DNA from: a virus
DNA length: 64,000 nucleotides
IMG/VR virus record: IMGVR_UViG_3300023179_000011
Location: 32,001-96,000 of that record
Strand: one strand, 5' to 3'
In this document: piece after piece, positions 1,057 to 1,998 of the stretch
How the letters are laid out: each line of letters starts with the position of its first letter
Position numbering within the stretch: position 1 is the first letter of the stretch
The notes under the pieces: model-generated
Databases searched by the model: none
What the model saw: only the letters and a program-made list of their open reading frames with translations
Told to the model about the DNA's origin: nothing
Made by a program: the position numbers and the translations under genes

Positions 1057-1998
1057 TCACTGCTGCTTCTTGCTCATATGCTCTGCATACGCTGCGCGTT
1101 CCGCCGGTGTTTTAAAAAACAAGTTTGGCGCAAACAAACCGTCTTTTGCGCCCCGCCGGTTTTCTAACCCGTCGAGCCAGTTGTAGCGTAAATAACGTAC
1201 AAACGCTTGCGACGCCCGCAGATCACCTTTCACGCCGCCACGAACGGCTTTGTGAATACGGTACAAAAAGTTAGCAGGATTTTGTAGATCAATTTCTGCC
1301 AGATCGACTGTTTTCCAAGCACGTAAAACATTTGCACAACGCAGTTCTCGACTCTTGTGCAATAAACTTGTCGGCGTTGATACGTTTTCTTGCACTTGCG
1401 GCGTCAAACCTAAAAACAATTCAAGTTTTGCCGCGCGGTCTGGCGACTTGCGGTCAACATACCAGCGCGGGTCAACAATTGTAGCGAGTAGTTGCGCGGC
1501 TACTTCTTCTGACAACGTTGGTATAAATGTCAACGCTTTGTGCGCCGGGTGCATCCGAAAGTAAGCTTTTGCTGCGTCATCAAAAACAAAGTTAGTTCGC
1601 TGCATACGGCCAAGAATGGCATACGTTGGGTAATCATGCGCTGAGAGCTTGTGCCAACCTCCGGCGGCAGGAGATACATCAACACCGCGCATATGACGTA
1701 AAACAATTTGAGGATCGCTGATATCTTCTGCGGCGTGTAGTACATTTGGCCCGGCTATTTCGACGCGATTAATCTCGTTTTTGTAGTGTCGCAAATATAG
1801 TGCTGAAATAAGCTCAGCGTTCTGCGGCAAGCCTAGAACACGAACCTGAACGCCCATACCGTGCAGCACTGGAGAAAGTAAAAACGAATCTAACACCTGA
1901 TCTGAATTTGTAGCCGGTCCGATGCCGACAGAAAACCAGATCCGACCGTCAGTGTGGGTGTGGAGTTTGATTACGTTTTCATCAGCTACGTTGTACAT
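1057..1998 (-). CDS. IS110-family/Nop-domain-like protein with degenerate RuvC-like N-terminus
   Basis: 313 aa. LTFIPTLSEEVAAQLLATIVDPRWY...KLELFLGLTP matches the IS110 Tnp/Nop pattern LxxIPGIGxxxAAxLLAEIGDxxRF...LxxYxGLxP. EDISDP aligns with KTDxxDA. Ends RASQAFVRYLRYNW. The N-terminal catalytic D/E and the catalytic SG are not seen. Confidence 0.55.
   Translation of the reverse strand: MYNVADENVIKLHTHTDGRIWFSVGIGPATNSDQVLDSFLLSPVLHGMGVQVRVLGLPQNAELISALYLRHYKNEINRVEIAGPNVLHAAEDISDPQIVLRHMRGVDVSPAAGGWHKLSAHDYPTYAILGRMQRTNFVFDDAAKAYFRMHPAHKALTFIPTLSEEVAAQLLATIVDPRWYVDRKSPDRAAKLELFLGLTPQVQENVSTPTSLLHKSRELRCANVLRAWKTVDLAEIDLQNPANFLYRIHKAVRGGVKGDLRASQAFVRYLRYNWLDGLENRRGAKDGLFAPNLFFKTPAERAAYAEHMSKKQQ

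Follow-up and report, generated by a model that had tools for sequence, protein, structure and literature searches.

An uncultured phage carries, directly behind the genes of an SbcCD-type nuclease, a gene whose product is related to TIGR-Tas effectors and to the recombinases of IS110 elements. The question raised by this locus is whether such a gene belongs to an insertion sequence, encodes an RNA-guided binder, or serves the DNA metabolism of the phage itself. A preliminary description of the locus had regarded the product as an apparently inactive IS110/Nop-like protein kept as an operon gene, that is, as an RNA-guided binder rather than a transposase.

Genomic Setting of the TasR-Like Gene

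The DNA analyzed, referred to here as the window, comprises 64,000 nucleotides and corresponds to bases 32001–96000 of a 199,845 bp (199.8 kb) IMG/VR record (IMGVR_UViG_3300023179_000011) rated 98% complete. Gene content (large terminase, collagen-like tail fibres, 7 tRNAs) identifies the source as a tailed phage. Its family A polymerase shares at most 23–25% identity with that of any deposited phage, and the genome is densely packed, being ~94% coding.

The TasR-like gene (P0001) occupies positions 1057–1998 of the window on the (-) strand, begins with ATG, encodes 313 aa and is present in one copy in the 199.8-kb genome. In strand order, its product consists of an N-terminal RuvC/RNase H-like domain (about aa 1–112; 1663–1998, (-)) and a C-terminal Nop/IS110-Tnp-like helical domain lacking a long coiled coil (about aa 113–313; 1060–1662, (-)). 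The protein is basic, with a pI of 9.3.

Upstream lie the genes for an SbcC/Rad50-like ATPase (1982–4135, (-); Pfam SMC_N and AAA_23, PHROG 77 SbcC-like) and a syntenic SbcD/Mre11-like phosphoesterase (4077–5255, (-); Pfam Metallophos, PHROG 100). The colinear block is headed by a conserved 205-aa gene, u205 (5265–5882, (-)), which matched no family and is syntenic in the closer loci. Downstream follow a 165-aa gene for a Cas7/Csm3-like RAMP protein, likewise basic (558–1055, (-)), and the 5′ part of an SF2 DNA helicase gene (2–664, (-)), which continues beyond the window edge.

The helicase gene, complete in locus L036 at 12001–14664 (-), carries an intein-like LAGLIDADG insert at about aa 161–556. 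Because of this insert the protein reaches 887 aa in total, compared with about 505 aa in orthologues without it.

The TasR-like gene and its neighbours leave no intergenic space. The start of the TasR-like gene overlaps the sbcC stop by 17 nt, the RAMP gene begins 1 nt past the TasR-like stop, and the gene appears to be co-transcribed and translationally coupled with the upstream SbcD-SbcC pair. Scans for operon promoters and terminators gave results at chance level.

Other genes of this phage show features of their own. The family A DNA polymerase (L036:5364–8525 (-), genome 23364–26525) has an N-terminal domain of the uracil-DNA-glycosylase superfamily and a 3′–5′ exonuclease domain. At window positions 28608–29390 (-), a group I intron (RF00028, 68.6 bits) bearing an HNH homing-endonuclease ORF (28632–29192) splits an AAA ATPase gene, the upstream exon ORF (29378–30328) ending at position 64/131 of the AAA profile. 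A collagen-like tail-fibre protein of 1620 aa, with 180-nt tandem coding repeats, is encoded at 51435–56297 (-).

Predicted Fold

The AlphaFold2 model of the TasR-like protein, built from 31 sequences, reached a pLDDT of 87 and a pTM of 0.87. It consists of an RNase H-like N-terminal domain of b1-b2-b3-a-b4-a-b5 order followed by a helical domain. TasR, IS621 and ISCro4 occupied the top ranks of the Foldseek search, with probabilities of 0.84–0.99.

Structural alignment by VIA-align gave the same proteins. Chain 9mty_B of TasR (TaTasR, PDB 9MTY) was aligned with model residues 8–309 at Z 10.8 over 233 residues (rmsd 5.3, 9% sequence identity), while IS621 (Z 8.2) and ISCro4 (Z 8.1) were aligned over 223–241 residues, both domains being covered. 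These three were the only two-domain matches. Alignments with TasH (Z 8.5–8.6) were confined to the C-terminal Nop part, aa 128–308, and next came single-domain YqgF/RuvC-like proteins at Z 6.9.

When aa 1–112 were compared with RuvC, RuvX and YqgF, Z values of 5–7 were obtained, which supports an N-terminal RuvC-like domain. A fold relation of Tas proteins to Nop5/Prp31 has been reported (PMC12045711); no Nop5/Prp31 chain was among the matches listed here.

Between aa 106 and 150, the model contains only helices of 9–12 residues each, compared with two of about 28 residues in TaTasR. As no helix of greater length separates the RuvC-like domain from the conserved core, the dimerising coiled coil appears, from the model, to be missing.

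Homology by Sequence

Sequence comparison gave fainter signals. In NCBIfam, the TasR-like protein had one weak match, TIGR_Tas_endo (NF052498), at E 0.014 and 15.4 bits over aa 139–206, far below the curated cut-off of 100 bits; the control protein SpTasH of Salicola phage CGphi29 scored 118.9 bits. The family is large and uniform, with 326 clusters when grouped at 90% identity and 851 representatives at the 50% level, nearly all of them about 300–340 aa long.

When 138 diverse relatives, of at most 50% identity, were scanned singly, NF052498 was matched at E ≤ 0.1 by 86 of the 138 (best 2.1e-9), all far below the cut-off. The IS110 profile NF033542 matched only 2/138 of them, at 0.02. By hhalign, aa 150–209 of the family were aligned with SpTasH, the shared core being HPxxxxLxFIP...DPRW...YLGL.P (HhH...GL.P).

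No match to the protein itself was found in Pfam, PHROGs or PADLOC. This includes the three Pfam models that had been proposed as a check, the IS110 models PF01548 and PF02371 (at E ≤ 0.1) and the Nop domain PF01798. A PDB sequence search returned nothing with the single sequence or with a 31-sequence profile; the 138-sequence profile hit POP7 at E 1.4, a chance match. DUF4123 clusters retrieved by an ESM Atlas feature search (0.90–0.91) were also rejected, their scores lying within the chance range and the assignment being contradicted by the fold.

The family is restricted to phages: among 185,579 species genomes a single relative was found, on a MAG contig. In a tblastn search of 50,697 deposited phages, nothing was found for the TasR-like protein or for two distant members. 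Locus scans run with P0175 or P0270 alone were negative.

Taken together, fold and profile evidence establish remote homology of the TasR-like family to the Nop-type proteins of the TasR/IS110 lineage. The earlier assignment of the C-terminal half to the IS110 Tnp/Nop pattern was thus borne out by the alignments with TasR, IS621 and TasH and by the NF052498 matches, and the structural comparison with IS621 and TasR that had been suggested for it yielded matches over both domains.

Loss of the Known Catalytic Residues

Across aa 1–112, no position has D and E together in at least 70% of the 138 relatives; the four acidic RuvC residues are therefore absent, in agreement with the earlier remark that the first RuvC Asp/Glu is missing. 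Conserved basic residues are found instead on beta1 and beta4, namely K11 (K/R 87%) and R53 (90%).

The serine that IS110 proteins carry downstream of the GL.P motif is absent as well, as had also been noted: no conserved serine follows this motif, and S207 is retained in 20% of relatives. At the level of sequence, both the RuvC carboxylates and the IS110 DEDD/serine sets are gone from the TasR-like protein.

Two motifs had been read from the protein at the outset. A DxxD (EDISDP) was said to be kept where IS110 proteins have KTDxxDA. The residues E91-D92-I-S-D95-P96 are indeed present; among the 138 relatives, D is found at position 92 in 14% and at position 95 in 49%, with E at position 92 in a further 44%. 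The likeness to a retained catalytic motif was accordingly rejected as a chance resemblance, poorly conserved across relatives.

The second motif, F..YL...W, was correctly recognized as F266-x-x-Y269-L270-x-x-x-W274 and is conserved among the relatives (F 85%, W 99%). It does not form the literal end of the protein, as had been stated, since it sits 39 residues ahead of the C-terminus.

Gene Order and Inheritance

The gene order around the TasR-like gene was u205–SbcD–SbcC–TasR-like–165-aa gene–SF2 helicase–h291–DnaB-like–primase–PolA, with a UvsX-like recombinase further on. Two alignments were used to find viral contigs, and in 104/104 loci on these the TasR-like gene is preceded by SbcC and followed by the helicase, down to 23% identity of the TasR-like protein. 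Its divergence tracked that of SbcC, SbcD, helicase and PolA, with Spearman rho of 0.90–0.95 over 72 distinct loci; these correlations denote co-inheritance and not interaction, because shared ancestry alone yields them.

When loci were sampled independently, with the helicase as anchor, the TasR-like gene was present in 73 of 80, and four loci of that sample had no SbcCD nearby. In the related phages of loci L183 and L189, the helicase follows SbcC directly with no TasR-like gene between them. The gene is therefore not universally required by the SbcCD–helicase pair.

By these data, the TasR-like gene behaves as a vertically inherited core gene of a replication/recombination module, neither mobile nor part of accessory defence. 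The carrier phages form a large uncultured clade with genomes of about 150–225 kb.

The RAMP gene follows the TasR-like gene in 85 of 107 loci and is absent in the other 22. The structures matched by its AF2 model (pLDDT 92.8) were nearly all CRISPR RAMPs, including Cmr, Csm3, type VII Cas7 and Cas7-11, with Foldseek E values of about 1e-5 and VIA Z scores of 12.8, 12.4 and 11.5. A glycine-rich loop and the pair H100-E101 are invariant in this protein.

In a RAMP-less subclade, the place of the gene is taken by a gap of about 100–250 nt. The gap was considered as an RNA gene and rejected, as it resembles a terminator plus a promoter-like TTGAC...TAGAAT sequence. In three pairs of loci (L025/L055, L029/L054 and L027/L047), about 0.25–1.7 kb are inserted between the TasR-like and RAMP genes, and the insert may be a homing endonuclease.

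Search for Arrays and Guide RNA

The TasR-like protein could be a true RNA-guided programmable DNA binder, in the manner of dead TasRs and TasA, with its guide supplied in trans by the phage, by the host, or in a form missed by array finders. The RAMP protein would then be a possible co-subunit, and such a complex could guide SbcCD together with the helicase to specific sequences or repress transcription there. All relatives of the fold characterised so far bind RNA, either a guide or a box C/D-like one (PMC12045711; bioRxiv 10.64898/2026.09.09.750476), TasRs with a dead RuvC domain are RNA-guided repressors (Xu et al., bioRxiv 10.64898/2026.09.09.750476), and a second fold that binds guide RNA, the RAMP, adjoins the gene at most loci.

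The search for a guide returned a series of negative results. TRF and a scan for regularly spaced k-mers over the whole 199.8 kb found only coding repeats (collagen-like, tail-fibre) and no array. Units of the forms CCA-N8-12-TG and CTT-N8-12-TG and classic C/D box units were about as frequent in the whole genome as in shuffles, or rarer, so that the genome-wide count of TIGR-like units, which had been proposed as a check, showed no enrichment. The sole excess concerned CTT-TG triple units (17 vs 8.4 in shuffles), which were scattered and unclustered; in array scans of this kind, single degenerate stem-loop units could escape.

Roughly 50 intergenic gaps of the genome shared no repeated element, and Rfam matched only 2 tRNAs, the group I intron and, by chance, sR32 at E 0.99. 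Outside the window, six gaps of 90–185 nt without long ORFs lie ~300–450 nt apart at genome positions 177,400–179,500, and neither a tRNA nor a common repeat was found in them.

A guide embedded in the gene itself was also sought. Across 30 orthologues, conservation of synonymous sites hardly varied along the TasR-like gene (mean 1.12, sd 0.07), and an embedded tigRNA is therefore unlikely. In sbcD and the RAMP gene, overlapping reading frames account for the synonymous peaks.

A further synonymous peak was observed in sbcC. At codons 630–645 (window about 2200–2250), in the ABC signature/Walker B region, conservation among 29 orthologues was about 5 sd above the gene mean, and a search for RNA structure there revealed none that was stable or conserved (z -0.88). 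Candidate causes are codon selection and a site for homing or recombination.

No TIGR-like dual-repeat or stem-loop unit is thus enriched in the whole genome, and no repeated element was found between genes or within the gene. The model lacks the coiled coil by which the two-spacer dimer is assembled, and the strict core-gene behaviour is unlike that of accessory guide systems. An alternative source of guide RNA was left open for related proteins (bioRxiv 10.64898/2026.09.09.750476), which speaks for a programmable binder; on balance we consider it unlikely here. Of the earlier conclusion, the denial of a transposase has stood and the RNA guidance stays a conjecture, no guide array or conserved RNA having been found in the locus, the gene or the genome.

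A related possibility, which we regard as quite improbable, is that the TasR-like and Cas7-like RAMP proteins form an array-free RNA-dependent machine. In this case a trans-encoded or transcript-derived RNA, such as a primer or a transcript from an origin or R-loop, would direct or license SbcCD and the SF2 helicase at specific DNA sites, which would amount to RNA-guided control of recombination-dependent replication.

Conserved Residues of the C-Terminal Domain

The polar residues of the C-terminal domain were strongly conserved: among relatives of at most 50% identity, H116, H150, D176, R178, R247 and E300 are kept in 91–99%. On the last helix, Y304 is Y or F in 95% and H307 is retained in 75%. 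Such residues might form a new active site, making the protein an RNase or a structure-specific nuclease beside SbcCD, for instance for removal of primers or R-loops or for cleavage of junctions. In the part of the module examined, no resolvase or RNase H/FEN gene was seen, a point in favour of such an activity.

Position 304 is, however, F in 33% of relatives and position 307 is Y or F in 17%, a degree of variation ill suited to a catalytic dyad. The conservation might just as well reflect a structural or ligand-binding role, and in structure searches the C-terminal domain matched no known nuclease fold. A cryptic enzyme of this kind therefore seems very doubtful.

An ordinary or decaying IS110-family insertion sequence, or a transposase relic, is practically excluded: the shared fold and the two weak IS110 profile matches among 138 members are all that speaks for it, and against it stand the single copy, the absence of non-coding flanks and of repeats bracketing the gene (both already observed in the preliminary description, which likewise held that this is no insertion sequence), the loss of the DEDD set and the serine, the fixed position in all 104 loci with divergence parallel to that of the neighbours, and a strong family-wide conservation unlike that of a pseudogene.

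Proposed Role in Phage DNA Metabolism

The explanation that we favor, with some confidence, is that the gene product is a divergent, array-less, nuclease-dead member of the TasR/IS110 lineage acting as a non-catalytic nucleic-acid-binding subunit in phage replication/recombination. With no cutting residues, no coil and no array, and with a fixed place behind SbcCD, the TasR-like fold appears to have been recruited to DNA replication or recombination.

As homology and charge suggest, the basic protein would serve as a non-catalytic subunit binding nucleic acid. Its predicted substrate is RNA, an RNA–DNA hybrid or a branched intermediate, bound together with the RAMP protein where that is present. 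The substrate would then be passed to the SbcCD nuclease and the helicase, or used to position them, during recombination-dependent replication or end processing, and the protein would not act as an array-programmed effector.

Several points weigh against this role as a nucleic-acid-binding subunit. The RAMP gene is missing in 22 of 107 loci, L183 and L189 do without the TasR-like gene, and the conserved polar residues of the C-terminal domain could form an active site.

What emerges is the two-domain TasR/IS110 scaffold, minus nuclease, dimeriser and array, as a core gene flanked by those of a Rad50/Mre11-type nuclease and a helicase and often accompanied by a CRISPR-type RAMP gene. This bears on a question raised by the preprint of Xu et al. 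(bioRxiv 10.64898/2026.09.09.750476), namely the role of an array-less tas clade and the source of its guide, and provides a hypothesis that can now be tested: a partner of SbcCD, RAMP and helicase in phage DNA metabolism. Should there be an RNA partner, the locus would show RNA-guided systems entering housekeeping DNA transactions by a new path; if there is none, it would be a clean example of a guide-binding fold reused guide-free.

Comparison with Known Systems

TIGR-Tas systems, as defined by Faure et al. 2025 (PMC12045711), combine arrays with a Nop domain to which a RuvC or HNH nuclease may be added. Within them, one divergent clade of compact TasRs from densely packed viral genomes has been described that lacks both coiled coil and array, whether it uses another guide source being left open there (Xu et al., bioRxiv 10.64898/2026.09.09.750476). 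The present family resembles this clade in being TasR-like, without a coiled coil, without a detectable array and in a dense viral genome, the two being matched by description only. The text of the preprint makes no mention of SbcCD–helicase synteny, core-gene behaviour or a Cas7-like neighbour. The supplements of PMC12045711, which were searched, contained no IDs of related contigs, and our literature search returned no report tying Tas-like proteins to SbcCD or Cas7.

The dead-RuvC TasRs with stem-loop guides (PateTasR, CsTasR) and TasA, which are RNA-guided repressors (bioRxiv 10.64898/2026.09.09.750476), likewise have a Nop domain behind a RuvC-like one; the latter is devoid of canonical carboxylates and has basic residues in or close to its pocket. 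In contrast to the TasR-like gene, which shows none of the following traits, these proteins have coiled-coil dimerisation, adjacent stem-loop tigRNA arrays and accessory status in CPR bacteria or phages. The active TaTasR (PDB 9MTY, PMC12045711) is the best two-domain structural match of the TasR-like protein; its four acidic RuvC residues, its coiled coil (K109–H168 in TaTasR) and its dual-repeat array are absent here.

IS621 and ISCro4, the bridge-RNA recombinases of the IS110 family, share with the TasR-like protein the same two-domain layout and the HhH...GL.P core. The DEDD set, the catalytic serine, the ends bearing bridge RNA and the mobility of these elements are missing at the locus.

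In gene content, the locus recalls the archaeal Mre11-Rad50-HerA-NurA operons, in which an Mre11/Rad50 pair is combined with a helicase and a partner of RNase H-like fold. NurA, however, is an active nuclease unrelated to the Nop domain; the likeness is a functional analogy only, and no homology was detected or is claimed.

To our knowledge, all TIGR-Tas and IS110 proteins described so far belong to accessory systems, namely array- or bridge-RNA-guided defence, regulatory or mobile elements. Known TIGR-Tas genes are not core genes of replication and recombination inherited vertically, and it is in this respect that the TasR-like gene differs from them.
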